A stretch of DNA of 64,000 nucleotides from Marsupella aquatica (taxonomy: Eukaryota; Plantae; Marchantiophyta): positions 11,339,892-11,403,891 of the forward strand of contig OZ316894.1 of assembly GCA_973895155.1 (NCBI GenBank). The letters are read 5' to 3'. The stretch's first letter is position 1; the number at the start of each line of letters is the position of its first letter. Shown piece by piece: positions 1 through 42,669 of this stretch. The translations under genes and the position numbers were made by a program. The notes below the pieces were generated by a model. It did no database searches, had not been told where the DNA came from, and worked only from the letters and a program-made list of their open reading frames with translations.

Positions 1-30
1 AGTTATTGGATGTGACGTACCCTAGTTGTA

Positions 31-3000
31 ATGGACATGACCGGGGGCGTGATTCAGGACCTACCTCCTGGGAAGTCCTCCGCATTGTCACTTGTTTGGA
101 CTCTTAATCAAGCTATCATTCCTTGGGAACGCCTGACAGACTTTAGGGATGGGGAGGGCAGAAGAGATCCTAAATTTGAGACATCTTTTTACATTAGGAC
201 TTCAAAGAAATCAGATTCTGAGAACACAGATTGGGTAGAGTATAAGATATTCTGGTGTTCTTATGGCCCGCAAGAACACAATGTCAATCTATGTGTTCCT
301 CCTCTCCAAGGAACACATCCAAAGTCAGGAATTGGGAGCAGGCCACGTCTATGCAAAAAGAACTTCAACAATCACGCAAAAAGGAATTGTCAATGTCACT
401 TCATTGCAAAGAGATTCAAGATGATCCCTGACGCTATTCAAATCACGTATAGTAATAGGTACAAACTACTTTCTGACTCAAAATGAACTTCTATGACTCT
501 GTTCTTGCGTTCCAATTTGAGTTTTCCTTACTGTTCTGCCACCATGTACTCTTCACATCATAGTAAGTTATTTGCGATATAGTGTGTGTTCTGGCATCAA
601 ACTTCACTAAAACTATGTGATGTTGTTACTGTTCTGTCACCAAACATCACTGAAATTGTGTGTGGTTATTACTGTTCTGGTTGCAGAATCCATTGCAACC
701 TTAGAGGTGACATAGTGCATGGTTCTTGGGAGCATGAAATGGGGCCGCCAACATGGGAGCCAAAGTGTAGTGTTGCTCCATGGCTGACCAACGAGTTGCA
801 AAAACACCTAGAAGACTTGTTGAGGGCAAAGTGGTCTGTCCTTGACATATATGACCTACACTGCCAGTCACAATTTGAGAGGGATGGTGATGATCGTGGC
901 CATAATGTCACTGACATGGAAGTCACACTAAGCTTTGATGGTAGAGACGACCTTTTGTCAAAACAGGACCTGCGAAACCTGAAGAGGAAAATTGACAAAG
1001 AGTTGTGGTTATGGGATGACAATGACCAAGCCTCAATGCGGAAATGGAAATGCCTTTACCCTGAAAGAGTTTTTCTTTCCCATGAGTACTTGGAGGGACC
1101 TCCAGAGCAGGAGTTCATGCTTGGACTCCAATCACCTTGGCAGCTTGCTCAAATGACAAAGTTGTCTCATGGGTCGGTCTTGACCCTGGACTCCACATTT
1201 GCAATTAACGAATATGGGGTCAGTTCTCTTGGTCCCTTTCCTACATTATCTTTTATTCATTTTTGTGATGTTATCGTGTGTTTGAATTACCGTTCTGGTT
1301 GATTTCTATGTTGAATGACATTACTGTTTTGGTTTTTTTTGTATTGACTGACATTACTGTTCTGGCATGTAACCTTAATTACATTTGTTATGATGATAGT
1401 TTCCTTTCTTTACTCTTGTTGCATTTGATGAACACCAAATGGGACTACCCATAGCGTGGTGTATACAACAGTCAGAGTCAGCAGAACATATTGGGTTGTT
1501 TTTACAAGCTATGAAAGATAGAGCCTTGTTGACCAAACCGGATTGGAGTCCAAGTTGTTTCATCATCGACTGCGCTCAGGCTGAAGTTAGTGCCTTACAA
1601 GTAGTGTTTCCTAACATCCCAATATACTTCTGTAGTTGGCATGTCAGAAGGTATGTTTGAAACCACATACCACGGACCATTCTCATGTTTAGTTATCATC
1701 ATCACTTATAGAGTCTTTCTGTTACTGTTCTACCCATTTCACTCACAGGTACTTCCATACAGGGTTTGGAAGGAGAATCTGATCAAGAAGGTTCCCAACA
1801 GAGCCAAGCTCCTAAACATGAATGATGATCTTGGAGATTTAATGTATGCTGAGACTGAGGAAGACATGCAAGCCTTGTGGCATGCCTTCAAAATTAAATA
1901 CAACTCTGAAAAGCTATTTCTAAAGTATTTTGAGGACACTTGGATGTACAGAAGAGGTATGTGGTTTGCTATTTGGGGTATGCCTGGCCATTTTAGTAAA
2001 TTCTTTGTTGTCAACATGTCCATTTGGTCTAAGGTTTTTGTATTGTATTTATATCTTGCCATGTATTTTATTTTTGCAATGTTTTTGTAGCTGTTCTGTA
2101 CTGCACAAGTTTGTGTGCCTTTGTAGCTGTTCTGTATTGCATAATATCCTGTGTCTCTGTAGTTGTGGAATACTTCAGAACTCCGCTTGGATCTCTGGTA
2201 CTTAATGTTCTGGCATGTCTTATATTCCAGCAAAGTGGATGAGGGTTGTTCGATCAATGCCCCGTGCCAACCAGAATACAAATGGTGCAATTGAAGCTTG
2301 GCATTGCACTTTGAAAAAGATGATAAGGAGAGTAATAGGGGCCATTGGAGCACGTCGCCTTGATCGGATTGTGAATGCACTTTTTCAAGTGATGCTTCCA
2401 TTCTTTTGGTACAAAATTTGGTGCAAAGCAAGGGGAAGAGTCATCAACTACAAGAAAGAGGAAATAGTCTTGAATAGTCTCCACAAGGCAGAGCATCGAA
2501 TGAAAGACCATCAGGTCTGTTTTCCTGATCCAACATTGCCCAATCAGGCAATTGTGAAAAGTTTAAAACCTCATGGGAGAGAGTATATTGTGCGCAATAT
2601 ATATTCAAACTTTCCTTCATGCTGTTGTAAGTGGGCTGATGAAGGGAACATGTGCAAGCACCAATTGAAGGCATTGCTAGTGAGAGGTTGTCAAGGTGCT
2701 GTCTTTGTTCAACAACTAGGTACCAGGTTTGGTAGCCTCATGGGTGGCATCTCACATTTGAATGCGGATGAGAACATCCTGACACCACCTGAACATGTAG
2801 AAGTAGAAGGCCAAGTCGAGCCTCATGCGGTTTGTGAAACAATGGAATCTAGCCTTCATGTTTCTGTTCTGCCTAAAGAGAACCCAGAGCGGTCCCTCAG
2901 ACAATCTGTGCAACAGATGTTTGATGAGATTTTGCTCATTGTGGAAGGGGATGCCCGTCTAATAGAGCAAGTATTCCTGGCAACACAACTTACTTTGAAC

Positions 3001-3099
3001 AAAGTGAAGAGCCAAGAACAAACTAAACACCTCTCAATGAAAGACAATATAGGTCCTGTGGATGCTTTTGTTAGGCCTATGGGTCTTACATCCAAGTGA
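31..3099 (+). CDS. MULE-type DDE transposase with SWIM zinc finger (5 exons, ~757 aa)
   Basis: GT-AG exons 31-458, 687-1218, 1400-1650, 1763-1956, 2231-3099 join in one frame (2274 nt). Motifs: WCSYGP, CQCHF, LDSTF (D), FIIDC (D), FCSWH, AIEAWH (E), SWIM CCCKWADEGNMCKH. The TGA at 3097 may be premature, since degenerate coding-like sequence continues to ~3550. Confidence 0.88.
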
Positions 3100-3780
3100 C
3101 GTCTAGGTGTTGTGGACATTTACCACGATTGGGAAGAGAGGAAGGAGGACTATGGCTTTGAGGACAACACAAACAAGAAAACAAGCAACTTCGTCTCAAA
3201 TAATTACTAATATGGTAAGTTCTATATTTTTTTGTTTGTTCCAATTTCTGTTCTGTCCTGTATGAAAAACCAAATAATTGAAGAGCGGTAACTTAGCTTG
3301 AATGGCAGGAGGAGGATGGCACAACACCATGTAAACTACCATCCAAGCGCAAAGTGGTTCGGGAATCTATCACGCAGCATCTGAGTAGGTTAGGCAAGGA
3401 ATTTAAGGACGGTAGGCGGTGACGTAGGACAGCAAATCAGTTCACTCCACCACTTCCTGCTCGTGTCATGCACCTTGGAGGTGGTGCTAGGGATGTGGAC
3501 ATAAACACCAATATTGACCTCAATGTATCCCTTCATGAGGAGGCTTCATGATAATGAAATTTGGTGCTCAGTGACCACACAACACTGCTTATTAAGAGCC
3601 TTTTAAAAGTAACTATAAGTTACCTAGCTATTGACTAAACTCATTGATCTTAGGCATACTTCACATCTTGTGTGTGCAAATAAGTGGACACTAGAATAGT
3701 CACATAAATGCAAGTGTATTTCTCATTAGTTGAATGTGAGGAGGACAATGACCGTCAAAGTCTACAAAGAATTTTCATAT

Positions 3781-4290
3781 GCCAGAACAATCACACAAAC
3801 ACGAGAAACAATCATGGGTCACAAACGCGGGGCTGCCAGAACACTAAAACAAGTGCAACAGTACCCTTATACTTGTGCAAACACGGGGTTGCCAAAAGAG
3901 TCACATGAAGATGACAGCCCTTATATTTGGGCAATCGCAGGGCTGCCAGAACAGTCACACAAACACAAAAACCCTTGTAGCTAGGCAAACACGAGGCTGC
4001 CAGAACAGTCACATGAAGATGGTAGCCCTATATCTGGGCAATCGCAGGGCTGCCAAAACAGTCACACGAACACAAAAACCCGTGTAGCTAGGAAAACACG
4101 GGGTTGCCAGAACAATCACACAAAGATGACAACCCTTATATCTGGGCAATTGCAGGGCTGCCAGAACAGTCACATGAACACGTACGACAACTCTTGTATT
4201 CATTGGGCAAATGCACGGCTACCAGAACAGTCACACAAATGTATAAAATGTAGTGGTGCAAAAGAACAATTGCCAGAACAGTCACACAAA
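3781..4290. repeat. ~54-bp tandem repeat, 10 units with dimeric (~108-bp) higher order
   Basis: GCCAGAACAGTCACA-type core at 3781, 3835, 3891, 3945, 3999, 4052, 4106, 4160, 4221, 4272. It lies between the 3' ends of the two MULE genes. Confidence 0.9.
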
Positions 4291-4480
4291 TTTGGCGATG
4301 TATCACGACAATTCATTGCAAGCTGGAGAGTGAATGTACAAAGAGCAGAGTGCTTTCACACTATTTGGTTTCTTTTAATGTGTAAATAACTTCATTTGCT
4401 ACTATATAGATAGTTGCCAAGAGGCAGGCATAGTTACATTGGACATGGTTCAACCATGACATTTCCATTGATATCTATGT

Positions 4481-7456
4481 CTAGTGGGCTCTATACTTCC
4501 CTGCCTGAACAGGCAAAGAATCCAATTCCAGGGGTGGGAATTTTTGGCAGTCAGTCATGGGTCCAATGGTCTCAACTGTGACATTCTTGTCTGACTGAAG
4601 CTGAAGGGCTCTAAGCTGAATTCTGGTGGTTGTTAACAAGTCCCAATGGTGAGGGGCAATGGGGATGCCATCTGGTCCAACCCAGCAATATAGAGATGGC
4701 GGCCATGGATGAGCATTGTCAATTGCCGGAAAAGGTACCGCTATCTTCCTGTAGAGCATAACAGAAAGTGTAATTAGCAAAGTCCTCTTGCCTACGTCAT
4801 ACCTATATTCAGAGGGAGAGAATGGTTGGCAAGGCACTGTTACCTTGTGTGGTAAACCCATAGGAAAACTTGGAGTTGTGTGTAGGACTTCCGCCTCTTT
4901 GCGTGTAGTGGTAGCCAGACTTGTTTGCCATTTTTGGTTGATATATTGTAGCTTTCAATGAAGGGGATGACCTGCCCATCACTACCAACTATAGAATTGG
5001 GCAAAGCGGGGACAACACGCAGTAAATTTTCTGCTGCATGGGTTAGCAGGAGGCCTAATTCAGCCTTCCACCTGATCATACCCCATGACTCATCGGAACT
5101 TGGTGGTGTGATGGTCGGGAGCAATCCTACCAGAACAGTGACGAGAACAATAGTAAGTTGAATTCATTCCACAAATCCACAGAAAATGTCGTAAGTAAAA
5201 GTGAAATGACCATCAGTCCTCCCTGAAGTCCTCTTATCTTACCTCCAATAGTGGCAAGAACCCTGAACTTCTCTGGGGTTTTTGTCCTTGATCCCTTTTT
5301 CCTGGTTGTTGGCTTCTTCTTGAGCCTTTTTTTCTCTACGGAAGGAGTACCCTGCAACACAAAACAGTAATCCATAAAGAGTCAAAATTGCCTATCATGT
5401 ATATGAACAGGAGCAAACAAAATTAAAATTGACAATGCCCCTAAATTTGAATGACATTGCAAGTCATAGCGACTGAACTGCAATTAACTTAGGGTGTTAG
5501 CACACTGAACTTACTACACATAACCAGCTTACTACACATAAGAAATTGAATTGAAATAAAGAGTGTTACCAGACAAAATTGAAATAAATTATACAGTGCT
5601 AGCAAGTGCCCATACCTTAGTAGTAGACGGCACATTGGTGGCTTGTGTGTTTTCAATATCCTCTGAATGCTCTGTACTAGTGTGTACTCCAGAAGTTTCA
5701 CTGCCTCCGTCTGGTTCTTGCTCTTTTGTGCCTCCACCTTCATTTTCGTAGGATTCTTGATCATCTGGGAATCTAGTTTCATTTTCAATGTAGTCTGCTT
5801 GTTCAGTGGCTTATTCGGAGCCTGATTCAGTGCCTTGGTCTCTTGCTTCGTTGCCTTCATGTTCAAAGGCGGACTCTTCATTGTTGGCTTGATTTTTGGC
5901 ATTCATTCTACAGGACTTCTTGTTCTTCTTCATCACCAGTACCTCAGGAGTGTTTCTCTCCTTCATGACTATCTTCATGTGAAGGCTCTGTTCCATGGCT
6001 GATAGTGTCGGGGTCTTCTTCCGTAGCTTCCAAGACTTCCTTGTCCGCCACTTCCTACCGACCAAAACAGCAATAAAAACAAACAAGTATGAATTGTCGG
6101 AAGGGAAAGCTTGCAAACCAGAACAACAATAGAAACAAACAAGTATGAATTTTCAAAAGAGAAAGCTTGCAAACCAGAACAGCAATAGAAACAAACAAGT
6201 GTGAATTTTCAAAAGAGAAAAGCTTGCAAACCAGAAGAACAATAAAAACAAACAAGTACAAATTGTCGAAAGAGAAAGCTTGTGAAATGGTACGTCAGCA
6301 ACAACCATCTTTTTTTGTTTCTTCCTCTGGGTGGGTTTGTCATTGTTACGAGCTTCCCTTCTTTTTGCTCTTTCTTCTCGGTCAGGTTGAACTTCTGCCT
6401 GCTGCTCCTTTGCATGCATTGCTTTTTTCTTGCTCTTGGATGTAGGCTTTGTTGGGGGGTTTTCTGTTTCACGAGATGGCTTCCCCTTAGCCTTCTGGTT
6501 CTGGTTATGTTTCTTTTTTGGCTTCTGTATGGGTTTTTCTATTACCTTTCGTGAGTGGAAGACATACTTCTCAGTTTGAAAATTGGTTTGCTGCAAGTTG
6601 CATTCAGGCATTCCATCATCGCTGCTCCAATCTTTGAGTTCACATTCCGGCAAACAGGCCTAACATGCAATCATTTGAAAATTCAGATCACAAGAAAGTT
6701 ATGGCAGAATAGAGACACAAACAAACAATTAATCATGTATGAGGCAGAGCAATTTGGTAAGCGACAAACCTTAGCACGCATCTCCTCAGGATCAATGTCA
6801 GGACTATGCTTATTCCAAAATGCCACTGTGTTGTCCCTAACACTAGACAATGTGCTTGTGAAGGCAGCCAATCGCCTCCAGTGTTGGTACCTTTCTGTTG
6901 CCTTCTGAACTATCCATTTGGTTTCATCCCCCTCATGGTTGATCTTCAAATTATGTGCCCAACGTAACCACCATGTCAACTTCTGCCTCTTTTGCTTCCA
7001 CACCTGTCCACGAAATGACCCAAGTGTTGATTCTCTATTATGTTCAATCGCTACTGTACTTGGTGGATTCTTGAACATTTGCATGCCAGAACAGTGAACA
7101 TGACACAAAACATCACATAAATGCTGTCATGGCAGAACAATCACATATAATGCAAATAAAGTTACACACCTTTGTCGGGCTGAGGTCTTCGGACGACCTT
7201 TCTTACATTCTCCTGGGTTCATGCGATGTAAGGATCGCATGTGATCCAGGAAGGAGGTTCTTCGGATGAAATGTGTACAACTACCATCAGTCATCACCTT
7301 GCAAACATAACCAGATCTTGAAGTTCTGAGAAAGGAAGGGTTTTTCTGCCGGACCCAATGCACATTCTCTTGTGCCTCAGGAAATTGTGCCCATACTTCA
7401 GGTGGTGGGACAGGCAACTTGCTTTTCCTAGCCTGACTTGAAAATGACCGAGGCAT
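4481..7456 (-). pseudogene. MULE accessory gene (C2H2-like finger + AT-hook-like motif, acidic middle, unknown C-terminal domain), disrupted
   Basis: Putative exons ~7456-7170, ~7071-6770, ~6659-6294, ~6055-5617, ~5351-5212, ~5126-4481 with GT/AG borders. Motifs CKVMTDGSC-x12-H-x4-H and KKGRPK. The acidic exon has stops and a frameshift, and there is a frame change near 4860. Confidence 0.6.
6062..6285. repeat. 56-bp tandem repeat x4 (in an intron of the accessory gene)
   Basis: AAACAAGT anchor at 6081, 6137, 6193, 6250; units carry ACCAGAAC-like sites. Confidence 0.88.
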
Positions 7457-7977
7457 GGTCACAACACTATAAAATCGTCGAGATCACACTCACTGCAGAA
7501 TGAGCAACTTGCTGTCATAAATCCAGAACGGTAACACAAACAAAGAGTTTAGAGTGTAACTTTTATGAAAAATGATGATAACATGGCGCAAGTTGCAAGC
7601 TTAGTGGGGAACCTTCCGGCCCCGATTCCGCCACAAAATCTAATCGAGAAGAGCATGGGGATGGTTGTCTAAAAAAAACACACCGTCGTCGTCATTGCAA
7701 GGGGCAGTGTTGCGCCAATCTGCTTTCCAGCCGCACAATTGTCGAAACCCAAAAGAGCTGAAGTCTATGGCAAATTGAGGAAGTTACTGTCACAAAACCA
7801 GAACAGTAACACAAATAGAGAGTTTAGGTTTATGAAGAACGACGATTGCATAGTGCAAGTTGCAAGCTCAAACAGGGGACCTTATGCCCCACGCCACAAA
7901 ATGCAAGTAGCATGCATAAGAAACACAGACTGACAGACTTTCTCATCAAACACAGAGTCTCTGCAGGTATTTGTGAA

Positions 7978-8109
7978 GCGTTCACAAGGAATGATAGCTT
8001 GATTAAGAGTCCAAACAAGTGACAATGCGGAGAACTTCCCAGGAGGTGGGTCCTGAATCACGCCCCCTGTCATGTCCATTACAACTAGGGTACGTCACAT
8101 CCAATAACT
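7978..8109 (-). repeat. Inner part of the right inverted repeat; reverse copy of positions 1-132 including the first ~33 transposase codons
   Basis: ORF 7882-8079(-) begins MDMTGGVIQDPPPGKFSALSLVWTLNQAIIP, versus MDMTGGVIQDLPPGKSSALSLVWTLNQAIIP at 31(+). Confidence 0.92.
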
Positions 8110-21905: not shown

Positions 21906-24249
21906 TAGGGTGCCCAATTCTGGGATACACAGTGCTATATTACTTGGACTTTGTTCAGGCCGCCTTAGCTTGAAAGGGTTATTGTCATAGCTTCAATTAT
22001 TGATTAAGGGTCCACAGGTAGTCAATATCTGAGTGGGTAATTTTTGGGATTTATTTATGGTCTTTCAGCAAAACAGCTGAGAAACCCATTCTTAATGAGA
22101 TCAACAAACTTTTGGGCAAGGCTTGCTTGAAGGCAGGTTTCCCTTGGGAAATTAGCGGCCCCACTTCCTCCCCCTCTTCCCCTTGGTCTTTGCCTGCATG
22201 CAATTTCTAATGTGTTTTTCTTGGCTTTTGTTTTTCAAAGTGTCAGGGCAAGTGTCTTCATTTCCCTTTCTTGGGGAGCATTACTGAACCATGAGGATTT
22301 TGTCCTTCTAATTGAAAAGCCTTGTCACATTTAATGAAAAATAAATCTTGACAGAAATCAAATAAATATGGGGCAAGCGTCCTCACTTTGTTGCATATTA
22401 AAGCAAGGACAAAAACCTTCATACCCGCCTTCACAACATCCTTAGATAGAAGAGAACCTTTCAAACCTCATCCTACAAGGGGCTGCTAGTAACCTAACCG
22501 AGCAACCAACAACTGACTTCTTCAATTTACAACAGCAGACAAAGTTGAATACAGGGCTAATATGCCCCCAACATATCCTTGAGTGAGCCAAGACTCTTTC
22601 CAAGTTGCTTAATTGACCCCCTATGGACTGTTTCTTACTTAATCAACGGGGATGTTCAGATCTGCCCCAATCGACCCCCTCTCACAATTTCTTACATATA
22701 GTTCTTGGGAAGAGCAGTATCTCGAGCAGTATAGGGAGACTTTACCACAGTGAACTCTAATTACCTATCATATGAGCCCGTGGTCTTGTCCGTGGTATGC
22801 TGCAATTATGTCGAGATAAGAGTCGGCCCACAATCCACGCGTGATAAGATCGAATGACATCGGACGTAGTCGTGTATACTTTTGTATTTGAAGACAAAAC
22901 TAGTATGGTCTTCAAACATTTAGGGGTCTCCAGCAGGGTCTCCATTTGTATGAAGTTTAGAGGTAATAAACCCATAATGTTCATATATAGTTGCTTTGTT
23001 GACAATCTTTATCAGTGCATTCCACTAGAGACAAATCTATGTTTGGATCTCACTCACAGAAAATGCTTTGCTGGATATCTTTGACACAGATTAATTTGCT
23101 AAATTGGCACACTTGCGTTCAAAAATTATTAAAATTTCTCAAAATGTTTCCAATCTTTATACTGCAAGACCATTATGACAGCCATGAATCCAAACACTTG
23201 TAAAATTCTCCAAAATCTTTGAAGTGTTTGTCGTTTTGAATTTGAGTTGCCTTTGCTTCCACTACGAGCAATTGAACTCAGACACTTTGCACTATGTACT
23301 CTCAACAAAGTGTATTCACTAGAATAAACATATCAACAACAATTGATGACAACATCAAATTCTTACGCACTTTCTTATAGGCTTTCCCATCAGTTATCCT
23401 GGCCACATCCTAAACCCATGTGCAATTGCGTCTTGTTTTTGGGCACGCTCTATCACTATAACACAATGACCCTCTTTTGCGAAACACCCTCCCTCGCATG
23501 CAACAAAGGAAATAATATCAGCCAACTCCTTGTTGCGAAACGCCGCGCATCTCAACATCGTCGCTCTTTTCCATGCCCACACCTTTGCAACCGGACCTTT
23601 GCAAGAGCTTCGCACTTTGCAACTGTTTAAACATCGCACACAAGTGCGATGCCATACCTCTCGCAATATTTGTGAAGCAGGCACTATGGGCGCGTTTGCG
23701 ATTCGACGAGCAACACTAGTAAATGTAGCGATGCTGAAATCATTGCCAGATTGCGATATAGGACACATTGGTAGATTGCGAGCCATACTATCTCTCCATA
23801 CTGCGATACGTTTATGTTCGCTCCATTTGAAAAATTAAACACATCTGAAATGTGCGGAAACTGTGTGTTCGCATATTTGCGATTTAAATAATGTCGCAAA
23901 CGTTGCGAGGATGAGTGTTTAGGAAGTTTTGCGATGGTTGTGTCTTGGCTATTTGAGATGACAGCTGGTTCTCAAGGGTTTTGCAAAAGGTATTTTTGAA
24001 GTATTAGGGTATAATAGGGTTTAGTGGTTTAGGGAGACAATTCATACAGTTGAAGGAGGGAGAAAAGGGATGTAGGTAGACCGGAATGCCGCAATTAAAA
24101 TGGCATTATTCAAAAAGTACAAAAGTTACAAAATGGAAGGGTAAGAACCCTTAGCTAAAAGTTGCATGTCCATGCTAATCCCTATACATGTGAACTACCT
24201 AAGTCTCTAGGGTAATCTACGCACCTATCTAGATAGAGCTAGAAAGGAG

Positions 24250-26300
24250 AGTTCATGCCCCTCCTTGACTTCTTCCCCTTGGCCTTCTCCTTGCCCTTGC
24301 GTGCTCTTTGAGGGGGACCGGGGCCTCCTCCTCCTCTTGGTCTCCCTCCTCATCCTCATCCCCATCACCATCCCCATTCCCATCCCCTACCGCACTACCA
24401 CTCGCAGCACCAGTGGAGTGTGCTGATGCAAATGACAGCTCTCCAGTGCTAGTTGGCCTGACTCGACTAGCAGGAGCAGTGCTCCCCTCCCCTGTCCCCT
24501 CCTCATCCTCATCGCTACTATCACCCTCAGTATGGGAGTCACCATCATCATCCGGTCTCTGTTACATTAGCAAACCAGCCATGCATTAGTCATATAGAAC
24601 CTTACAATTCAGTGAATGACATAAGAGGGAATTTTTCATAAATGCAATCAACACATTAACCTGAAAATTAACGGTCACCAATAATTGATCAACTTGCTGA
24701 AAGAGATGCTCCTTCCCATGTTTATGGCCCACCTCCATCTCAGCCGCTGTGATCTTCCTCTTGTACCTCTTGTACTAACCAAAACAAAAACCGACACAAT
24801 TGGTCAAAACCAAGCAATAACGGCAAGCCAAAATGCCTTAAAACAATTAGAGGGGTTAATTAGGTGCTGGTGGGGTTGGGGCTTAGGTTGGGGGTGGTTT
24901 TACAAGGGTGGCATGGGGGCTTACAACCCTCAAACAACACTTGAACGTTTTGAAATTTTCAAAAATTCAATTTTTTTGAATTTTCCAAGGCTCCAGCTTT
25001 GCAAACGTAAGGGAAAACTAGGTTGCAAAAGTGATTGAGATGGGCGTGGCTTTGCAAGGGCATTGCAAAACTATTTCCAAAAAAGTGAATAACAAGGTTT
25101 GCAAAGCGACGCGCATCGCCAATGCTTTGCAAACTCTTTTATGACGAAAAGTCGAAAGGGAAGAAAATGTACGTGACCTAATCTAACACAACAACTCCAA
25201 TTGGAAGTACTTGGTGCCACAGCAGAAAAGAGTTGGGGCATTGCAGGTGTGTTGGAATAGAAATTGGAGGAGTAAGAAGTCAAGAGAGGAGAGGGCGATG
25301 CACTCACAAATGCTGCTTTGAGGCCGGGGAGGCCACCTTGACCAAGCCTGTGGGTGATGTTGGGCTTGTCTCGGACTCTCTCAGCTGCCTTCAGGAACTT
25401 GTTGGGTGGATCTCCCACTTCTGCTACAACCTGCTGCAATTGGGCCACCTTCTGCTCCATCATCTTCAGGTCACGGTCAGACTTCCCGGGCCTTTGTCAA
25501 CTTCTCTGTAAATTCATTCAGGACCCTGGCTGCTTTCAACTTCACCTTCGTGGCGTAGAAGGCCTACCAGATATCTTCTGAGAACTGTAGCAGCCTCCCC
25601 AAATTCCTGTACTCAGGACTCCAGATCTCTCAGGTGAGCTCTGATCTTCATCCTGTCATGGTATCGTGCTTGTGACATGGAATTTGAGATTTTATCAGTA
25701 AGCCATTGTGAATCCATCTCTCCTCCATTTTGGAATGCATCTTTCACCTGATTGATCACTCGCTTCTGCTCTGCCTTGGAGAGAGTGCTCGACTCGACTC
25801 CTCTTGCAAAATTTGTGGACACAATGTGTCTGATTGTGCTCTTGGCCCCATTGTAAGCAAGCTCTGTGGGAATTCCCTCATCCTCTAATGTGATCAGAGG
25901 CAGCTTCCTCCTTGCCTCCTCCTTCTTTCTCTGCTCCTCCCTCTGTTTCCTGATCAAGTCTCTCTCATCTTTCCTCCTCTTCTTTTCCAAGGCTTGAGGG
26001 GAGAGTACTCCAGCCTGAGCTCTCTCATCCCTCTTTCGCTTCTTCTCAGCGGCCTTCTGCTTGGCTGTCCTCCTTTCTTCCTCCTCTCTTGCTGCTTTCC
26101 CTGCACTGAGACCAGATTGCAAGGCCTGGCCCAATAATGCACTCAACCATGCAAGCCCTGCTGGAGAGGTGAAATCAATCTTACTCAACTGCGCAACCGA
26201 GAAATGGTCATCCACCATCTTTGGAAGTCGATCCTCCTCCTCTTGGTTGCCTCCGCTGCTGCCAAAAGCTCCTCCATCACCTCGATCCAGTTCCCCCTCC
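24250..26300 (-). pseudogene. CACTA accessory TnpA/PTTA (Transposase_24)-like gene, disrupted
   Basis: ORF 25613-26539 (charged coiled coil) continues through a frameshift and stops into ...NITHRLGQGG (PTTA-like H-x-x-G motif), then a small exon at ~24660-24775 and an acidic last exon at ~24570-24250. Start codon uncertain. Confidence 0.6.
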
Positions 26301-26619
26301 GCTTGCCATCGCTCCTCCCTTGCCTGTGCAGCTCTCTCCCAAGGCCCGCAAGAAATGGATCTGCCTTGTCCGCGCTCGGCAAATGATAAGGACAATAGAG
26401 TTAGGGTTTGCGAAGTCATTCTCATCGCAGTTTGTGGTGTTTCTACCTTCTCAACCAGCTTTGCAAACGCTATCTTTGCAAAGAATACAACTTCACAAAC
26501 GTGTTTGCTATTGGGTTTGCAAAAACCCCCATCTCGCATGTGTATTTTCTGTGAGCAGGGATACTAAGAGGGGTAATAAACATTAAATTTGGTACAAGTA
26601 ATTCATTGGATGTGATCAT

Positions 26620-26960
26620 ATAAGGGTTGGGGGGTTAAAAGTGCTGACATTGGAGGGTAAGAGGAGGGGTCTTATGTTACGGCTTTTGGGTTTGGCCTGG
26701 TTGGGGGGGAGTGTTATTTCAGAAGGTTGGGGCTTATATTGGAAGGTAAGAGGCGGGGATTTATATTTTGGCTTTTGGGTTTTGCCTGGTTGGGAGGGTT
26801 TTTATTTTATGAAGGTTGGGCTTAGATTGGAGGGTAATATGAGGTGTTTTATGTTTTGGGTTTGGCCAGGGGATTTCATTTTATGAATGTTTGGCTTATA
26901 TGTATTGGAGTAAGAGGAGGTGTTTTATATTTTGGCTTTTTGGGTTTAGGCCAACTTAGG
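26620..26960. repeat. Degenerate ~70-bp tandem repeat x~5 between the divergent CACTA genes
   Basis: Recurring GGTTGGGCTTA.ATTGGA.GGTAAGAGG..G...TTTATATTTTGGCTTTTGGGTTT. Confidence 0.7.
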
Positions 26961-27556
26961 AGGGAAAGACAGGTTCTATTTTCATGGACACTTGGCTTAA
27001 TTTTATGGTTACTTATGAGGGCAAGTTCTAAGAGGTTTTTATGCTAACAATTGAGGAGAAAACCCATGTAATCATGATACAGCCCAGGGACATCACTACT
27101 TCCTCAACTTTTGTCTAATGCATATGCATTGTGGAAACCCGGGTATCTAAAAGGTATAACATGTATGTAGTGTTGTTAGTGGAGATTTTTCATAAACCTT
27201 GCCATTTTTTGTTTTGCAAGAATATATAATTATATATGTGTAACTTATGTTTGGGGTTCCACAACTTGAGAGATGCTAATGACTATCCAAAACTTACATT
27301 TTGTTTCCAGTATTTTCCTTCTACTTCTAGATTTGGCTCATGTTCATTGAGCCACACGACCTATAGGCACTATTGAGCCCGGGTCTCATTCAGGTAATTC
27401 ACTAACCTAATTCAGGGCTTAGACCATTACAATTTTCCCAAGGGTGACAATGTGATATTTTTGTGCATGAAACTTTCCTTTGGGTTTCATGCTAAACAAA
27501 AAAGGGTTTTTGTAGTTTAGTTTTAGGATATTTTTTGGCCGAGAGGGATTCTAATC

Positions 27557-28740
27557 ATGCCCTACATGCAATGTAATGTGGCAGTGGATATGTCCTCCTC
27601 CTCTGAACTATCCAGTAGTGAGTACTCCTCCTCCGATGATGTACCCCCTCCTCCTCAACCTGAGGTTACCGGTCCTCGTGGTCCTCCCTGGAGACTTTGT
27701 GAGTGCACCAGATGTGTGGGCCAAATTTCTCAAAAATCTTATATGTGTGCTCAACATATTGAGAGGTATGGACGTCACAGGGGTCTTACTCCGGGGGCTT
27801 CTTCATCCCATATGGTACGTGGATTTCAATTGTTTGCCATTTTTTCCTCATATTTCATAAGTGAATCAATGTTTACACATATGTTTTTTGTGGGTTTTTG
27901 CATGGAATAGGGATCCAGTATGCGTAGACCGGTGACACCACCACCCTATGTCCCATCACAAGGAGTTTTAGATGCTATAGGCAATGCACTTTCACAAGCC
28001 TTGGGTGTAGGGATGAGTACCAATCATGGGACTAAAGAGGAACAGCCTCATGTGCCCACTGAGACAGGAAGACCCCGGTCCAGGTCCCAGTCCAAGAGGA
28101 GGCCACAAGCACCCAATGACCCATCAAGAACACTAGTTGAGGGTAGGTGGGGCATTTGTTCATTCACTAGCAAGTGTGCCTCTATCATCAAAGATTGGGA
28201 TCCTATGACTCTTGGCTTGCCTTATTTTCCCAGTTATGATGAGGAGATTGTGGTTTGGGGTAGACGTTGGATTGTGAAAGCTTCCACACTTGTAGAGAGA
28301 CACGGATATGGAGTATTTTCTTGTGAGGATATCATCATGGATGATGGGAGTGGGTCAAGTATTTGTGGTAGAGAGGGTCCTACTTTGCTCCCATACGGTG
28401 GACCCATCTACAAGAGAAGACACTGGAACATGATCCTTGCACAACATCCTGAGTGGAAAACATATGCCCTAGAGATGGATACTTTTCATGGTAGCACTAG
28501 AAGGTATAGTGAGCAGCGGGTGATAGACGTGATCCTGTACGTAATGGGAATATTGTTGGCTTTATAAATAGTACTGTGGGGACTCGACCCAAGCGTAGGG
28601 CCAATTGTCAGTGGGTTTTTACTGATGGCCCAATGCTGGCACCATATGAAACGACATATCATAAGGACCATTGCTTAGTTCTTGCCACTAGGACTATTAG
28701 AGCTGAAGATGAATTATTCACACACTATGAGTGGGATTAG
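27557..28740 (+). pseudogene. CACTA-encoded SET-domain protein (lysine methyltransferase-like) with an N-terminal transposase-associated Zn motif; one 1-bp frameshift
   Basis: Exon 1 27557-27814 (CECTRC..C..HI..YG), intron GTACGT..AATAG, exon 2 27911-28740. SET motifs: VKASTL..HGYGVF, LPYGG, ID[G]DPVRNGNIVGFINS, NCQW, LVLATRTIRAEDELFTHYEW*. Frameshift at ~28529. Confidence 0.8.
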
Positions 28741-28988
28741 GGAGCCATGTCATACATCCTCTTGTACCTTGTGTGGACTTCACACTTATCATTATATACA
28801 TGTCCTCTGGCCTCATTTTGGAGTAGTATAATTTTGGTGTGGCCCTTCACTTAAGTTCTTAATGTGAATGCATGCATTCAATCCTTAAAACTGATTGTTA
28901 ATTTGTGTTGAATGAATGGTCTGAAGTCTGTTTTTGTTGTACCTGGTGAAATATACATCAAGAGGTTTTTTGGTTGTGATTTGTGTAG

Positions 28989-31900
28989 AATGTGCAACCA
29001 TCTCAACAAATGTTACCACGAAGGTTGAGAGCAACATATCGGGAGATGGGCATGCCAGAAGAGGGAGAACCATCAGAGAGTGATTCCTCATCAAGTAATG
29101 ATGTAAATGATCATGGTGATGAGGAAGCAACACCTCAGACTGATGACCAGGTCATGCATGACCAGGACAGAGCCATGGATGACTTCATGGTTGATTGATT
29201 TGGTGCTGCTGTTGAAGATGGTGTCCCTGACATTAGTGTTGAAGAAGCTGCCCCCCAAAATGACCCATGACCACAACATACTCCAGAGGGACAACAACAA
29301 TGGAAGGAGGTTGAGGAACATGCCCGGACACCTATCTTTGAGGGTGCTCGGTTGAGTCATTTGTCAGCCATATTGGGGTTGTTGAACATTCAGGCCAAAC
29401 ATAAGGCAAGCAATTCTATGTTATCAGACATATTTGAATATTGTCATGACTTGATGTTACCCTTGGAGAATGTGTTGCCTGGAACTTGGAAGGATGCAAA
29501 GAAGATTCTCTCATCCATTGGCATGGATTACCATATCATTCATGTCTGTGTGAATGATTGCATATTATTTCATGGGGACAAAGCCCATATGACAGAATGC
29601 ACAGTATGTCATGAGCCACGGTATGACCCAAACATGCTAACTGGGAAGGCGCCAAGAAAAGCAGTTCGTTGGTTCCCCATCATTCTTCGCTTGTTGCACA
29701 TGTATAGATGTTCTGACTTGGCCGAGTTGATGGTATGGCACAAGAAGCATTGTTCGGAGCCCGGTGTGATACGATTACCAGTTGACTCTCCTGCTCATAA
29801 ACATGTGGAGTCAACATGGCCAATTTCCAGCCAGATTTTGAGCGTGACCCTCTACATGTGCAACTTGGGTTGGCATCAGATGGGGTTAGCCCTCATTCAC
29901 TTGGAGGGAAGGGGAGACCTACATCAGTTTGGCCAGTGGTTCTCATGAATAATTACAACCTTCCACCATGGTTGTCCATGAAAAAGGGCTTTTTATTGCT
30001 ATCTTTGATTATCCCAAGGCGAAAGAAGGTGACGAACATGGACACCTATTTGGCATTAGTGGTTGAGGAACTCCAAAAATTATGGGATGGAATATGGGCA
30101 TATGACAGTCGAAAGACTACAGGGGGTACCCCACGGGTTTTTAAACTAAAAGGGGTTTGTATGTGGACCATGCATGACTACCCAAGTAAGAACTATGAAA
30201 CTACAACACTTTTTTGTTTACATCCAACATGATATGATATGGATGTTATCCCCTCATTTCCATGTGCTAATTCTACATTATGTGTGTCTATATGACCAGG
30301 ATTTGGCTTTGTGAGTGGGTTGCAAACCCAAGGCTACAAGGCTTGCTCCACTTGTGGCCCAAGTCTTGGTGATATAGCCAAGTACTCATCACACCTTCAC
30401 AAGATTGTTTATCTTGGGCATACAAAGTTTCTGCCAATGGGCCATCAGATGAGGTTTGACCCACTACTATTTTCCTCCATTGATATGCCCTTTGTTGATG
30501 AGCGTGATATACCAAAGCCAACAAATTTTGCACATTGGAAAGACTTGGCTGATAGTGGCAAACCCGAAGGATCCCATGCAATTTGAGGGTAGCGGGTTGA
30601 CTAGATGGAGTATATTAACCACTTTGCCTTATTGGGGAGAGTTGAAGATCCGCCATCTATTAGACCCCATGCACATTGAGGGAAATGTGGGAAAGGCTTT
30701 GATAAAGGCTTTCTATGGAGAAAAGGACACTAACTTCAGGGAGGCTTGTGAGTATCTTGAGATGCATCGAGATGTATGGGTCACAATTGATCCTATCACA
30801 TGGATAGAACATCGACCTTCAGCCCCATGGGTGCTTCCTGTTGGCCAGAGAAGGGAGTTTAGGAATCGTATAGGAGGCATATGGTTTCCTACTGGTTATG
30901 GTGCCAATCTCTGGAAGGCCTTTCGGATGGAGGACAATCATAAGTGGCCAATGTATCTCAAGACGCATGACTATCATCGGTTATTGCAGCATATATTGCC
31001 CATGGCCATAATAGGTTTGGCAAGTTCAGAAGTGCAAGATGCCATTTGGTCATTGGGAAAACTATTGAGATGGGTATGTTCTAAGGAGATGTACTGTGAA
31101 GAGATCCCTGGAATGGAGGTACTGGCAGCAGAGGTGGTATGCAAGTTAGAAAAGGCCCTTCCTCCTTCCTTTTTTGATTGCCAAGTGCATTTACTCGTTC
31201 ATCTTGTTCATGAGGTGGCCATTGCTGGTCCTGTGCATTGTCGGTGGATGTATTGGTTGGAACGATACATGGCAGTATTAAAGGGTTATGTATGTAACCG
31301 GGCACGGGTTGAGGGAAGCATGGCTACAGGATACTTGGCAGTAGAGAGTATGTTCTATTGCAGTAACATATTGGCCACAATTGATTGTACCTCTCCCCGT
31401 ACTTGGGTAGAGGCTCCAGAGGGAAGATGAGGAGGATCGTTTAACAGGTGCTATCAAAACCCGCATGTTGACACCAGTGGAGTTGAAACAACTAACCACA
31501 TTCATGTTGAGTAACAACACTATCATGGAAGAATGAAGGGATTTCTATGAGGATGCCAAAAGTACTAGTAGAAGACCAAGGATCTTTCCAACGTACCATG
31601 ACTACATGAAGGAGAAGTTGGTTGAGGTGGATGACATGGTAGCGAGGGGAGAGAATGTATTACATTTTCCAGCTATCACAGATGACGTCCGTACCATTAT
31701 TCATGGTCCCTTGAGAATGGTTACAACAAGGACGGCAATGTGGACACAAGGGCGGGCACAAGGGAGACATTTCAGGTTATTTCCAAGTACCTTAGTAACC
31801 TTTCATCTATGGTGATTTTAATTTATGTGTAATACAAACACATATATTGAAGAGACAATTTTTTGGCATGTGATATTAATTGTTATATATTTATGCCTAT

Positions 31901-32425
31901 TTTTGTAACATGTCCTTATGGTTTGATGGATTTTAGGGTTTCTTCCCTTGATGAGAAGAGGGGTCGTACCTTTGATTGTGGGTTTCAAGGACAATTCTCT
32001 TAAGATTCCCGCAACAATCCCCATGACACAAATATTATTCGAGATATTGTGCCACATTATGGAAAGATAGAGGAGATCCTAGTGATATCTTATGATGCAC
32101 AATCAAAGTTTGAAGAGTATGTCTTCAAGTGCAAGTGGTTTCAAAGTGAACCTTGTAGGTAACAATCCCACCGTGCTTCAAGATGAGTGTGGATTTACAC
32201 GGCTAAAGACATCTGCCACTAGTTTCCAGCCATCTCATTGGCAAACATCAGAGCTGTTCACTTTTCCAAGTCATGTGGAATAATGTTTCTATATTCCATA
32301 CCCCCCAAACCCAGAGGAATGGTCACTTGTCATCACATATGTGCCACAATCTCATTCAGTTGTTGGGGAAAAGCCAGATATTCTGGTTGTGTCCCAACCT
32401 GAAGAGAATGAGGACCAAGTTTGAG
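28989..32425 (+). pseudogene. CACTA TnpD/Tnp2 transposase (Transposase_21, DUF4218-like, DUF4216-like), decayed
   Basis: ARTPIFEG..LSHLS, IHVCVNDCILF, LGLASDG, WPVVL..YNLPPW, TMHDYP, LDPMHIEGNV, LKTHDYH, VHLLVHL..E...GPVHCRWMYWLERY, DECGF. Several frameshifts (~29198, ~29820, ~30570, ~31425) and in-frame stops. Confidence 0.92.
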
Positions 32426-32689
32426 GGGTATATGTTATGTGGATATATAGTTAGATTTGAACATATGAGGATCTCTCTTCTTGGTTGGAGAAATATGTGT
32501 TTCTAAATTATTAATAAATTTATGTTTGCCCAAATCAATCTTGTAAGTATATCAATTTTAAATGTGACTTGTTTACATCTTCCATCCCCACGGTCCCATG
32601 TACACTCCCACACCTTTTGGTACACTTTATGAAAAGAAAACTCATGTCGCTTGTAGTCATTCCTCCTCGTAGCTTTCCTTCTCCCACCC

Positions 32690-33145
32690 CCTAGCCTTTC
32701 TCTCTAGTACTTGTACCCACCTCCCTCCTCCCCTTGTCTCAACCCCTTTCTTTTTAAAACCTATACATTCCCTCAATTGTTTTCCACCTTTCACTGTCCC
32801 CAACCTATGCTCCTCCCTCCTTGGCTTGTCCCCCTCCTAAACCTATACCTTCGACCCTCCCTCTCTCCTCCCTCCTTTCCTTTTCCCTCCCTAAACTGTA
32901 GGTAGGTACGCTCCCTCCTCCCTCATTTCCTTGTGCACCCTAAACCTCCCTCCTCCCTTCGTTCCTTGTCCGCCCTTAAGTCAACCCTTCCTCCTCCTTT
33001 TCTTCCTAAAGTGTACCTCCCTAAAACTGTTTGTACCTCCTCCGGGCTCCTCCCTCCTCCGGGCTCCTCCCTCCTCCGGGCTCCTCCCTCCTCTCTCCTC
33101 TCTCCTTGACCCTCCTTCCTCCATTCCTTGTCCCATGCCCTTTCT
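32690..33145. repeat. CT-rich low-complexity tract inside the CACTA right arm
   Basis: CCTCCTCC runs and (CTCCTCCGGGCTCCTCC) repeats. Confidence 0.7.
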
Positions 33146-36100
33146 AAATCTGACAAACCCCAAAACCAATTTTCCAAACCATTTTGCGAACCCCCACCCA
33201 TCTCAACCTCATGGCTAAATTAGCGATTCCCATCTCATCGCTAGATCCCATCCCAATAACATCGCTACATTCCGAAACAACGCGCATCTCAACTTTCCGA
33301 AACTAAAACCTTCTCTAAAAAGAACCACTGAGGCACCATGATTTTGCGAGCCACCCCATATTGCAATGTGGCAATTCCCTAAGTTTTGCTGTATTGCGAT
33401 CAATTTTGCTTCGCACGCCGCTTTCCGACCACATAAGTATCGCACTGTTATCGATTCATTCGGCGTCGCAACTTGTTTGCAAAACGGTAAACATCGCTAT
33501 TACATAGAATGCTCAAAGGTTCAGAAACATTTTGCGAGATGTTTGATTTCGCAAATATTTGCGAAGAGGTTTGTGTCGCAAACAGTGGTTGCGATGGTTT
33601 TAGTTTCGCAGTTTGTTTGCATCGCAAGATGAGCGATGAACGGTGCTTCGCGGTGTGTTAATCCCCTTGTAAATGACCTTCGCAAAAATGGCAAATATGT
33701 AGTAGTGTATCTTGTAGTGATAAAATGTCACATTAAAGAATGTCCACTTCAAGTAGATCCCCCTCTATGCCAAAGATGCACAATGACATCAAAATCTCCA
33801 ACATTGATATCCCTAAGTGTACCTCACACCACTACAATGTCATCTAGATTGCATGCAAACTCTAACGAAAAGAGACTGAGCTTCCCAATAAACCCCAATA
33901 CAATAGATTCCCCCAAACCACATGACCAATAAAAAGCATCATGACAGAATCTGAAACAATGAACATTTGGACCAAGTTATGTGAGGACAATTCAATAATG
34001 AACATCTGAAGACATAACACGTATTGTCTTCACATCATTTCTGAAATCCTTGATCATTGCCGTCATGGCACGGCCGACCCTAAATCAAGCATTTGACGGT
34101 TTGGTTAAGTCGCTTGCACCCACGGACAGGTTCAGGTAGACTGCAATTACAGTACATGGCATGTCATGAACCATAAACTATCAAAGGGGGTTGATTGGGT
34201 AACAAACATACTTTGGGGGGTCGATTGGGGCAAATTTGAACATAGGGGGTTGATTAAACCGGAAACAGTCCAAAGGGGGTTGATTAAGCATATACCTCCT
34301 TCTAAATAGCTTCCACAAATTAGACTTGTCACCTTATGTATTGGTCTGGCTTTTCTTAACTACTGTTGTTTAGGGTTGGCCACATTCCTTGCAATATGTG
34401 TGCTCTTGTAGATAATTTGTGTGTCGCTCCTCACTCAATTTGCCTGTCTGATTTTTAAGTCTTCTTATCCATGTTTGACCGAATCTCTCTAGCCAACTTG
34501 CATATCTGATTTTTATGTCTTCTTGTCCATGTTTGACCAGATATTAACTCTCTTGACTACGATTCACTACAACTACAGTAGTATGCTATGCTCTTTCCGA
34601 AAAATATGCTGTGGTTTAGGGATTGCAGTTACGGTGTGCCATGTGCACCTCACTGTGGTGATAGTTTTAATCAATGATTGTAACTGTAGTGCTGTGTGTG
34701 TGAGTTGTGGGGGGAGGCAAAAGGCCACGGCACAAAGCCCAATACTTTAAAAGAGGCAAACGTCAAAAAGCGACTGTAGTGCTTTTATATATTGCAAAAA
34801 AGAATTAGTGCAAACCATAATGCCGTGTCTCATTTAGAAAACCTTATATGGTTGCTCCAACTTTAAGCAACCTTATGGTATTAAAAAGCTTTTAGAATTA
34901 TTGCATCCAGATAAACCAGAAATAGCAATTTTCTTCAAGATAACGAAAGGTGCGAGGATAGGGAAAAAGAAAGTGTGTGACTTGTCTTTTAGTGGTTTGG
35001 GCTAAAACAAATGTTGATGTTAAGAAGAATAATAAATCATTCCTCTTAGAGTCATGAACCACCTTAAAGCAAAAATTAACTTGGTACCTGTGCCCCCTCA
35101 AAAAGATTATGATATTAAGAAGAGTAATCAATCGTTCCCTTTAGAGTCAGGGATGGATTTTTATGTACAACCATAAAGCAAGTTTTGAGTGACTTGGTAC
35201 CTGTGCCCTCTCGTCACTTTGCTTCACAAAGAGTTGGGCTCACTTTTAAAGCCCTCCTCACATGTCATTTTTCTATTAGACAAGTGTTCAGCCTCTAAAC
35301 GATTATGAATATTTTCAAAATAGTTGTGGGCCTTTCATGATGTACTTCTCACATAATGACTTCAGTTACGGAGACATAAGTTACTCAAAACCATAAAGTT
35401 AGGAAACAAAATTGTGAAGATTAGTCAAAAGTGGAGGGTTGGCACTGTTGTGAAGCCTTTCTCTTTCACCCTCTATAGTACAAAGAGATAGTGGGGTATC
35501 TCTCAGACGTGTACTAAATGTCAGCTAAATAGTACTTGTGAACAAGGGTATATAAAATAAATATAAGGCTAAGGAGGGTTCTAGGAGAAGAAAGAAAATT
35601 AAAGCATTACTAGGGGGCAAACACAATTTTCAAGTCAAATACAAAACAAAAATCTCAATGAGAGAGAGTAACCTGAGTAGAGTCTTGAACAAGGTATCAC
35701 CTGATAAATCGAGGCCAAAGCCAGAGAACGGAGCCAACCCACAATAGGACCTCATCTTGAAGGAAGCACAGGACTACCAAGATACATAGGGCAGTACAAA
35801 GCATCCATAGCCACTTTGGCCTAGTTGCCAGCTCAGCTGGCAAGGCCTACCTCTGACCAGCTAATGTCAAGTTCAATTGATACGCAACACTACAGCTCTT
35901 GTGTTGACACACCTTTGGTGTGGCAGTGGGTTCCAGTATACAACTTACATGAGTTGTGCTCCAAACCCTGTCATGGGGATTTGGAGTGTTATGCATCTGC
36001 GTTTCTTTTAGTATTGTCTGTGAAAAATTAGAACAACAGGAAAATAGAAAATGGGGTTTTCCCCCTACAGGCAAGCCTGTTTTGTGTCTCATGAGTGGCT

Positions 36101-41400: not shown

Positions 41401-41796
41401 CAACAGTTGGTAGACAGAACATAGAGTGAAGCACAGACTTCGAGGTAATCACAGAAGGAGGAGTGCCAGCCTTGCATTGAGCAGGTGGGTGTTGTTTTGC
41501 AGTAGAGAGCGAGCAAGAGAGATGTTGTAGTTGTTGCTCTGTACAAAAGAAGAACGGCAGGGAACGAGAGAGAGAACGAGAGAGAGGCTTTGGAGAATCA
41601 GAGGACCGTGCATTGCTTGCTGGGTCTCTAGGGGGAAATCGTTTTTCAGCGAGTTACATGGTGCAGGGGCGAGGACGGAAAATCTGGTGTCTGTGGATTG
41701 CAGACAGAGAGAGTGAGAGAGGTCCGAGGAGGAGAAAGTATCGATATTATTGTGGTTTGACTACTGCTGCTAGTACTACGACGACGTCGAGAAATC

Positions 41797-42669
41797 ATGC
41801 CCCCGATGGATTCGTCGGCGTCACTATACTTCGATAGCTCCTGGATGATGGATGACACCTACCCGGATTTATTCGATGAGAAAGGGGAAACTGACCTCTT
41901 CTCAAGACAGGCCATGATCGCCACCAGTTTCGCAAACCCGAGCAACAGTAGCGAATCGTGTATGTCGAAAGTTGAGAAGGTGGTAGGCGGCGTTTGTGTC
42001 AGCCCTTCGCAGTGTATGGCTGATATCAATGCTGCGATAAGTACTGCTGGCTGCTTCTCAACGAATCCCTTGCTCTACGACGCTCTCCCAGCCCCGAGCA
42101 ACAGCGGCGAATCGTGTATGTCTAAAGTTGAGCAGGTATGCGGCGTCGTTGGTGGCAGCACTCAGCAGCACATTATGGCCGCTATCAATGTCGCGCTAAA
42201 TTCTGGTGCGGCAGACAAATCGATTCCTGCATTGAGGGAAAGTGCTATGGCGGAGCAATTTGCTCAGACCGAAATGTGGAAGGCTCGGGGTCCCGGAGGA
42301 TTTGATATGAACCTTGTGGCGAACAGTAGGCCGAAACGACGTAATGTGAAAATTTCCAAGGATCCGCAAAGTGTGGCTGCCAGGCATCGGAGAGAGAGGA
42401 TTAGTGACAGGATTCGTATTCTTCAAAGGCTGGTACCCGGCGGCACGAAGATGGACACTGCTTCCATGCTGGACGAGGCCATTCATTACGTGAAGTTTCT
42501 CAAGGCACAATTACATAGCCTTGAGAAGGCCAGCAATACACACAGTACTAGTTTCGATTCTCGCCTGGCTTTCGCGGCAAGCTCATTGTACCGTAATGGT
42601 AGCATGGCAGGGGTACCTCACAGCACGCTGGGGATTGATTACTCACCAATGCAAAAGCACGTACAGTAG
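41797..42669 (+). CDS. HEC: HECATE/INDEHISCENT-like bHLH transcription factor (subfamily VIIIb), intronless, 290 aa
   Basis: [59 protein letters not shown] is the VIIIb signature. Start is ATG 41797 or 41806. Confidence 0.95.

Follow-up and report, generated by a model that had tools for sequence, protein, structure and literature searches.

The window, a stretch of 64,000 nucleotides from the liverwort Marsupella aquatica, contains a full-length but decayed CACTA/EnSpm element with a SET-domain gene, the exons of a TnpD-type transposase and a further gene on the opposite strand (Table 1). The element has CACTA...TAGTG termini, and the motif TTGCGA/TCGCAA occurs 20 times within its two 500-bp ends versus 15 times in the remaining 63 kb. 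That the SET gene lies in a CACTA element bounded by a target site duplication (TSD), as a sequence-only reading of this DNA had proposed, is borne out by the TAT on either side and by empty-site contigs in all four public runs (4, 4, 3 and 2 contigs respectively), which join position 23450 to 33708 and skip 10,257 bases (10,254 + 3). These joints show the flanks to be a repeat that the CACTA entered and the ends of the element to be exact. A whole element of the same layout, with an ACA duplication, is also present in the metagenome locus L030.

Table 1. Features of the CACTA element and its genes in the window.
Feature	Position	Strand	Evidence and remarks
Left TSD copy, TAT	23451..23453	.	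Sequence; empty-site joint
Full-length decayed CACTA/EnSpm element, 10,254 bp	23454..33707	+	Ends, TSD, empty sites in 4/4 runs
Left CACTA terminus with subterminal TTGCGA/TCGCAA repeats	23454..23954	+	Sequence
Antisense gene, likely exon 3 (approximate), acidic then basic	24256..24561	-	Comparable low-complexity stretch, same location, in L005 and L007
Antisense gene, exon 2 (approximate)	24679..24774	-	Island of 77-83% DNA identity in loci; translations
Antisense gene, exon 1	25286..26389	-	Start uncertain; frameshifted near 25615
SET gene, exon 1: Ser-rich start, CxCxxC-x13-H motif	27590..27814	+	Gene-model match; dN/dS 0.06; phase-0 donor at 27815
SET gene, 96-nt GT-AG intron	27815..27910	+	Sequence; gene models from Calypogeia and Sphagnum are spliced this way
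SET gene, exon 2: Arg-rich linker, short pre-SET segment, SET domain	27911..28740	+	Translation, Pfam, homologues, fold
One-base loss breaking the frame in the window copy	28528..28530	+	Translations; extra base in close copies
TnpD-type transposase exons (Transposase_21, DUF4218)	28989..32424	+	Pfam; several stops and frameshifts
Right terminus with subterminal repeats, ending TAGTG	33207..33707	+	Sequence; near-identical end in locus L021
Right TSD copy, TAT	33708..33710	.	Sequence

A larger inverted repeat (22606-22679 and 34216-34290, arms 81% alike) was considered for the ends of the element and rejected, because its arms are part of the surrounding repeat of about 1.4 kb, which received the CACTA as an insertion; empty copies of this repeat were found in four runs.

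In the second exon of the SET gene, the motifs GYGVF and YGG are read in the frame from 27911 (open to 28567) and the motifs GN..GFINS, NC and LATRTI..EDELF.HY in the frame of 28513-28737. The two frames meet at the lost base, and with this base restored near 28529 all SET motifs stand in order, as had been claimed; intact homologues read IDGD across the break. The stop codon (28738-28740) follows three residues after the last tyrosine, and the post-SET Cys cluster is indeed absent. Contigs from close copies contain an additional base after 28528 or 28530 in 5/5 runs and, because these copies keep the base, its loss belongs to the window copy or to its assembly. Apart from the frame break, the window SET departs from 7 of 54 well-conserved columns, and the gene is therefore a decayed pseudogene copy. 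Full-length homologue models are 343-351 amino acids long, with a SET core of about 200 residues. An Arg cluster lies directly upstream of this core in 7 of 12 proteins, versus 0 of 12 farther upstream.

The exon was also said to be spliced to an exon of the transposon, and this holds with the finding of the short upstream exon and its intron; the exon-1 donor GT is present in 15/15 loci, in phase 0. The CxCxxC-x13-H motif of exon 1, found in 27 collected proteins, is likely zinc-binding. It may resemble the Cys/His motif of the transposase-associated domain PF13963, but exon 1 had no Pfam match and no usable Atlas match.

Downstream, the transposase is recognised by Pfam as Transposase_21 (E-value 4.7e-29) and DUF4218 (E-value 4.1e-32), with a conserved phase-0 acceptor at 28987-28988, and is broken at several places by stops and frameshifts. 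The antisense gene lies on the other side of the SET gene. Its first exon shows 65-79% identity to metagenome loci, while the likely third exon gave no tblastn match in these loci. The product is coiled-coil and helical with Lys/Arg-rich stretches, and a Pfam scan assigned it to no family; it is possibly a counterpart of TnpA or a DNA-binding partner, and a dN/dS of 0.11 (window versus the majority of the Sphagnum-type family described below) indicates purifying selection.

Intact homologues of the SET gene occur in Sphagnum, Calypogeia and Riccia. A search with the N-terminal half returned 17 of 126 candidate proteins at 51-75% identity (Sphagnum, Calypogeia fissa and metagenomes), and profile searches added many Riccia sorocarpa models at about 36-45%. 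One cluster at 90% identity comprises 360 member sequences, with five Sphagnum species among its 15 listed names. At an E-value of 0.001 or less, 226 proteins were recovered among 1.84 billion representatives; the best 150 of these, 20 of which were looked up by name, all belong to the SET clade of the window, and no close host SET gene is found among them. Distant members of this clade include P0250 (Ginkgo Gb_21150), P0287-P0292 (two of which are named Adiantum nelumboides), and P0210 and P0216 (Calypogeia). The Adiantum-type SET domain is repeatedly found attached to unrelated N-termini, of which one is retrotransposon-like; this hints that ferns may also have a mobile carrier.

The SET gene keeps its place beside the transposase. 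Among 41 metagenome SET loci, 23 continue for at least 300 nt beyond the complete end of SET, and in every one of these TnpD lies no more than 300 nt downstream; the antisense gene lies upstream of SET in 9 of the 11 loci with 2 kb of upstream sequence. As 40 of the 41 loci are copies, 91-95% alike, of one family from about ten assemblies, the 23/23 linkage represents one evolutionary event. This family is here called Sphagnum-type, after the likeness of its proteins to named Sphagnum sequences. Left CACTA ends were found with three different flanks (L005, L008 = L040, and L030) and a right end in L021. From Riccia sorocarpa, 10 models among the 312 collected proteins run from SET into TnpD; these are automatic gene models, 28-48% identical to the window in SET and 35-65% in TnpD. 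In a quick tree the TnpD-linked members are spread over three or more groups, each with its own support (SH-aLRT 95-100); as its backbone is unresolved, the tree is not used to name a donor or to order the events.

In nine loci (L023, L027, L031, L034, L035, L037, L038, L039, L041) SET is cut off mid-gene beside unrelated DNA, which in L031 is a LINE-like frame. These are outside the 23/23 count because they end too soon or are interrupted. Three of them, L023 (3169-3726), L039 and L041 (both near 10000), represent a single locus from three assemblies. Here, unrelated DNA of gene-like character leads in an open frame into the SET core, which is present from motif I on; in L023 the frame stays open to the stop, and the contigs end just past the core. 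It is possible, from this arrangement, that another locus captured the transposon SET core.

Selection on the genes was compared between families, with the window set against the majority codons of the Sphagnum-type copies. Here, the SET core has a dN/dS of 0.19 (95% interval 0.11-0.30; 200 codons; dS 0.89), and is thus under purifying selection; it is less constrained than TnpD (0.09), with exon 1 at 0.06. With a third family (L001) the SET value is 0.27, its interval again well below 1. Within the Sphagnum-type family SET stands at 0.84 and TnpD at 0.54, these two values coming from different locus sets, and the nearness of SET to neutrality is what dead copies would give. With the kept gene order, the purifying selection between families, and a SET fold for which no host subfamily stands out (see below), we are highly confident that the SET gene belongs integrally, as an accessory gene, to a bryophyte CACTA lineage and is not a recent capture of a host gene. 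The sequence-only reading had called the gene integral to the element and no host gene fragment, and both parts stand: the first on the TnpD neighbour in the 23 loci of one family and the ten Riccia models, and the second on the best 150 of 226 matches, none of which is a close host SET, and on the between-family dN/dS. It had also named two outcomes that would speak against it, namely the lack of a SET fold or HMM match, and a segment confined to this copy, near-identical to a host exon and evolving neutrally. Instead, both fold and HMM matches exist, and the segment is conserved across elements, has no near-identical host exon among these best 150 matches and is not neutral between families.

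Against the Pfam SET model the C-terminal half of the window protein alone has an E-value of 0.005, which is below the gathering score. Nine of 13 homologues pass this score; of the remaining four, one scores 21.7 against the required 22.4 and three are truncated SET-transposase models without a match. Structure prediction was carried out on the intact homologue P0090, which shares 151 of 203 aligned residues with the window, with an alignment of 96 sequences (pLDDT 93); an alignment of 16 sequences had given a fold with a pLDDT of only 36. Foldseek matched the P0090 model to SET domains (best E-value 1.8e-7) and structural alignment to the SET fold gave Z 12.1 with an rmsd of 2.5 over 124 residues, so that the predicted fold is the one claimed beforehand. 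Set1, EZH2, SET8, SET7/9 and LegAS4 all lie within one Z unit of the model, and with such a tie no host subfamily or histone site is indicated. Single-sequence and shallow-profile searches of solved structures returned nothing useful, while the profile search had LegAS4/RomA as its best match (E-value 4e-8), followed by EZH2 (5e-4). An analogy drawn earlier with the chlorovirus enzyme vSET gained no support, given LegAS4 as the best profile match and the tie of all SET subfamilies by fold. The matches listed in the profile, Foldseek and structural-alignment searches do not include vSET, which does not speak against kinship, and the SET folds of viruses score no differently from those of cells.

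The residues expected of a SET active site are near-invariant: the motif-I glycine (GxG) in 62/62 sequences, the motif-III asparagine in 61/62 and the motif-IV glutamate and tyrosine in 58/58. The position after the motif-III asparagine, which is the histidine of the canonical NH pair, is serine in 54/62. A small residue (T/C/A/V) precedes the final D/H-Y, and the window's subfamily ends three residues after the tyrosine, with tryptophan at +2 in 43/58. Legionella RomA/LegAS4 (PDB 5czy, 8swi) methylates H3K14, and six of its residues have been mutated to inactivate it (accessible text of bioRxiv 10.64898/2026.05.29.728679). It shares 28% identity with the bryophyte SET in the structural alignment, the highest among the matches listed, and both lack the motif-III histidine; unlike the bryophyte protein, it is a secreted bacterial protein with ankyrin repeats and a cSET helix. 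Mapped by hand on the sequence alignment, four of the six residues fall on conserved Tyr/Phe or Asn columns, one on Thr/Val and one has no counterpart. Since the bryophyte protein ends three residues past the catalytic tyrosine, the counterpart of LegAS4 Tyr231 and the post-SET helix are missing. The histidine is not strictly required, given that LegAS4 is active without it, and as the motif Gly, Asn, Glu and Tyr are near-invariant, intact copies are probably active lysine methyltransferases. The match to LegAS4 shows neither origin nor substrate, because by Z score it is tied with host SET proteins.

The AG acceptor opening the TnpD frame is present in 22 of 23 loci and, like the SET acceptor, is in phase 0. 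This conservation of splice sites, all in the same phase, suggests that SET serves as an alternative last exon of the transposase transcript. Counting against a shared transcript is a methionine at codon 8 after the TnpD acceptor, from which TnpD could start without exon 1; it is present in the window and in Sphagnum-type copies and missing in two Riccia models. Under the proposed layout, one transcript would start at exon 1, the exon with the putative zinc motif, which would be spliced either to the SET exon, giving a protein of 340-350 residues, or, with that exon skipped, to the exons of the transposase. A role in nuclear import or nucleosome binding is possible for the Arg-rich linker. By analogy with accessory proteins of other transposons, the SET protein would then act as a lysine methyltransferase on histone tails of the element's own chromatin, and the mark would keep the element transcribed and mobile, escaping silencing. 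This marking of its own chromatin to stay active is the reading that we favour, albeit tentatively. No DNA-binding domain able to aim the SET enzyme at its own element was identified. A wider proposal, doubtful as a whole though a serious candidate, is that of an old land-plant CACTA clade with its own histone methyltransferase as alternative last exon, in which splice choice would switch between a protective, perhaps unusual, mark and the transposase, and whose relatives reach ferns and Ginkgo.

An active lysine methyltransferase could also have a non-histone target, such as its own transposase, the antisense protein or a host silencing factor. The fold is compatible with this in showing no preference for a histone site and in including SET7/9 among its matches, an enzyme whose targets are not confined to histones; in addition, the partner genes are inherited together, and Lys/Arg-rich stretches occur in the antisense protein. 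However, the best profile match, LegAS4/RomA, is a histone methyltransferase encoded by a parasite, and published transposon SET genes are read, as proposals only, as modifiers of histones or chromatin, and we regard a non-histone target as rather unlikely. The same low probability is given to a SET-fold binder with little or no catalysis, a reader or decoy which would anchor the transposition complex on chromatin or sequester a silencing factor. The missing NH histidine and post-SET segment, the T/C/A/V before the final D/H-Y, and the presence of catalytically weak SET/PR proteins (PRDMs, MLL5, SUVH9) among the fold matches would fit such a protein, but cofactor- and active-site residues are near-invariant across sequences only 31-81% alike, and the activity of LegAS4 without the histidine again speaks for catalysis.

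More improbable still is a histone mark for restraint or targeting, by which the element's activity would be damped or its insertion sites would be marked or read. The fit to EZH2 and SUVH-type domains is as good as that to Set1, and the window copy, a single case, sits inside another repeat, as fits insertion into repeat-rich chromatin; restraint agrees poorly with the abundance of the family (360 sequences in one 90% cluster) and with CACTA elements making up 6.8% of the Sphagnum genome (PMC9946827). Lastly, a functionless passenger captured from a host gene by Pack-CACTA transduplication, a known process to which the broken window copy, the near-neutral evolution within the family (0.84), and the distant clade members in Ginkgo, Adiantum and Calypogeia could be referred, is hardly tenable against between-family dN/dS values of 0.19 and 0.27 with intervals well below 1, the constant place beside TnpD in mosses and in two classes of liverworts, the lack of any closely related host SET in the best 150 of 226 matches, and the possession by the element of its own transposase.

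Maize En/Spm has CACTA ends, a 3-bp duplication and subterminal repeats, and produces TnpA and TnpD from one alternatively spliced transcript. The bryophyte element shares the ends, the duplication, the repeats and TnpD, and the two-product transcript of En/Spm parallels the layout proposed here. To our knowledge, En/Spm has no SET gene; the bryophyte CACTA, in turn, has no Pfam match of TnpA type and carries its third gene on the opposite strand.

The novelty attached to the SET gene in the sequence-only reading was overstated, as SET-carrying DNA transposons have already been published, including Plavaka elements of the EnSpm/CACTA superfamily. In red algae, these have an accessory gene, PAG2, with a SET domain (PF00856), for which modulation of chromatin has been proposed (accessible text of bioRxiv 10.1101/2025.02.11.637652). 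Like the bryophyte element, Plavaka is thus a member of the CACTA superfamily with a long-kept SET accessory gene. PAG2 differs in having SET fused to an N6-adenine methylase, as part of a three-gene cassette in elements of 17-19 kb, whereas the window element, of 10 kb and from a land plant, has a Transposase_21/DUF4218 TnpD and a lone SET preceded by an exon with the zinc motif; Pfam scans of 70 homologues detected no N6-adenine methylase (PF01555). In Phytophthora, HarbingerS and MuDR families carry a SET histone-methyltransferase-like gene (PMC12730594) and proto-Helentron-Pi has a SET gene with a canonical Clr4-like domain (E-value 3e-24; PMC4067079). From the accessible accounts, these oomycete elements belong to other superfamilies and are alike in being DNA transposons with a SET gene; the canonical Helentron domain contrasts with the bryophyte CACTA SET, which barely reaches the Pfam cut-off. 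A functional model is offered by VANC21 of Arabidopsis VANDAL21, a transposon-encoded anti-silencing protein shown by experiment (PMC8616336). It is likewise an accessory protein acting on the chromatin of its element but, as described there, it belongs to the MuDR superfamily and promotes DNA hypomethylation, and is not a SET enzyme.

Transposon SET genes are thus known in oomycetes and red algae, while a SET-carrying CACTA in land plants was not found in the literature searched, to which Repbase Reports, preprint supplements and most subscription journals did not belong. The accessible text of the Sphagnum genome paper (PMC9946827) mentions no CACTA SET gene and that of PMC11982613 contains nothing bearing on transposon SET genes. 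For the oomycete and red-algal genes, the published accounts, in their accessible parts, report no test of function. The small, confidently modelled and intact plant copies make it directly testable whether a transposon writes its own histone marks. Many bryophyte models annotated as SET domain-containing proteins are transposon genes (360 sequences in the one cluster), and counts of chromatin enzymes in Sphagnum and Riccia can consequently be inflated.

Other features were observed in the remainder of the window. Inverted repeats of 138 nt, 96% complementary, lie at 1-138 and 7972-8109, and the frames between them give a weak SWIM match (E-value 0.05); the region 1-8109 is likely a Mutator-type element which starts at the window edge. 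Inside it, at 7465-7855, lies a likely non-autonomous CACTA of 391 bp, which has CACTA ends and is flanked by a CAA duplication. A host-like frame at 41761-42669 possesses a bHLH domain (HLH E-value 1e-7; SAC51/LHW types), and positions 62143-63785 comprise an array of 57-bp units with 62-bp variants and higher-order periods of 119, 295 and 352 bp.
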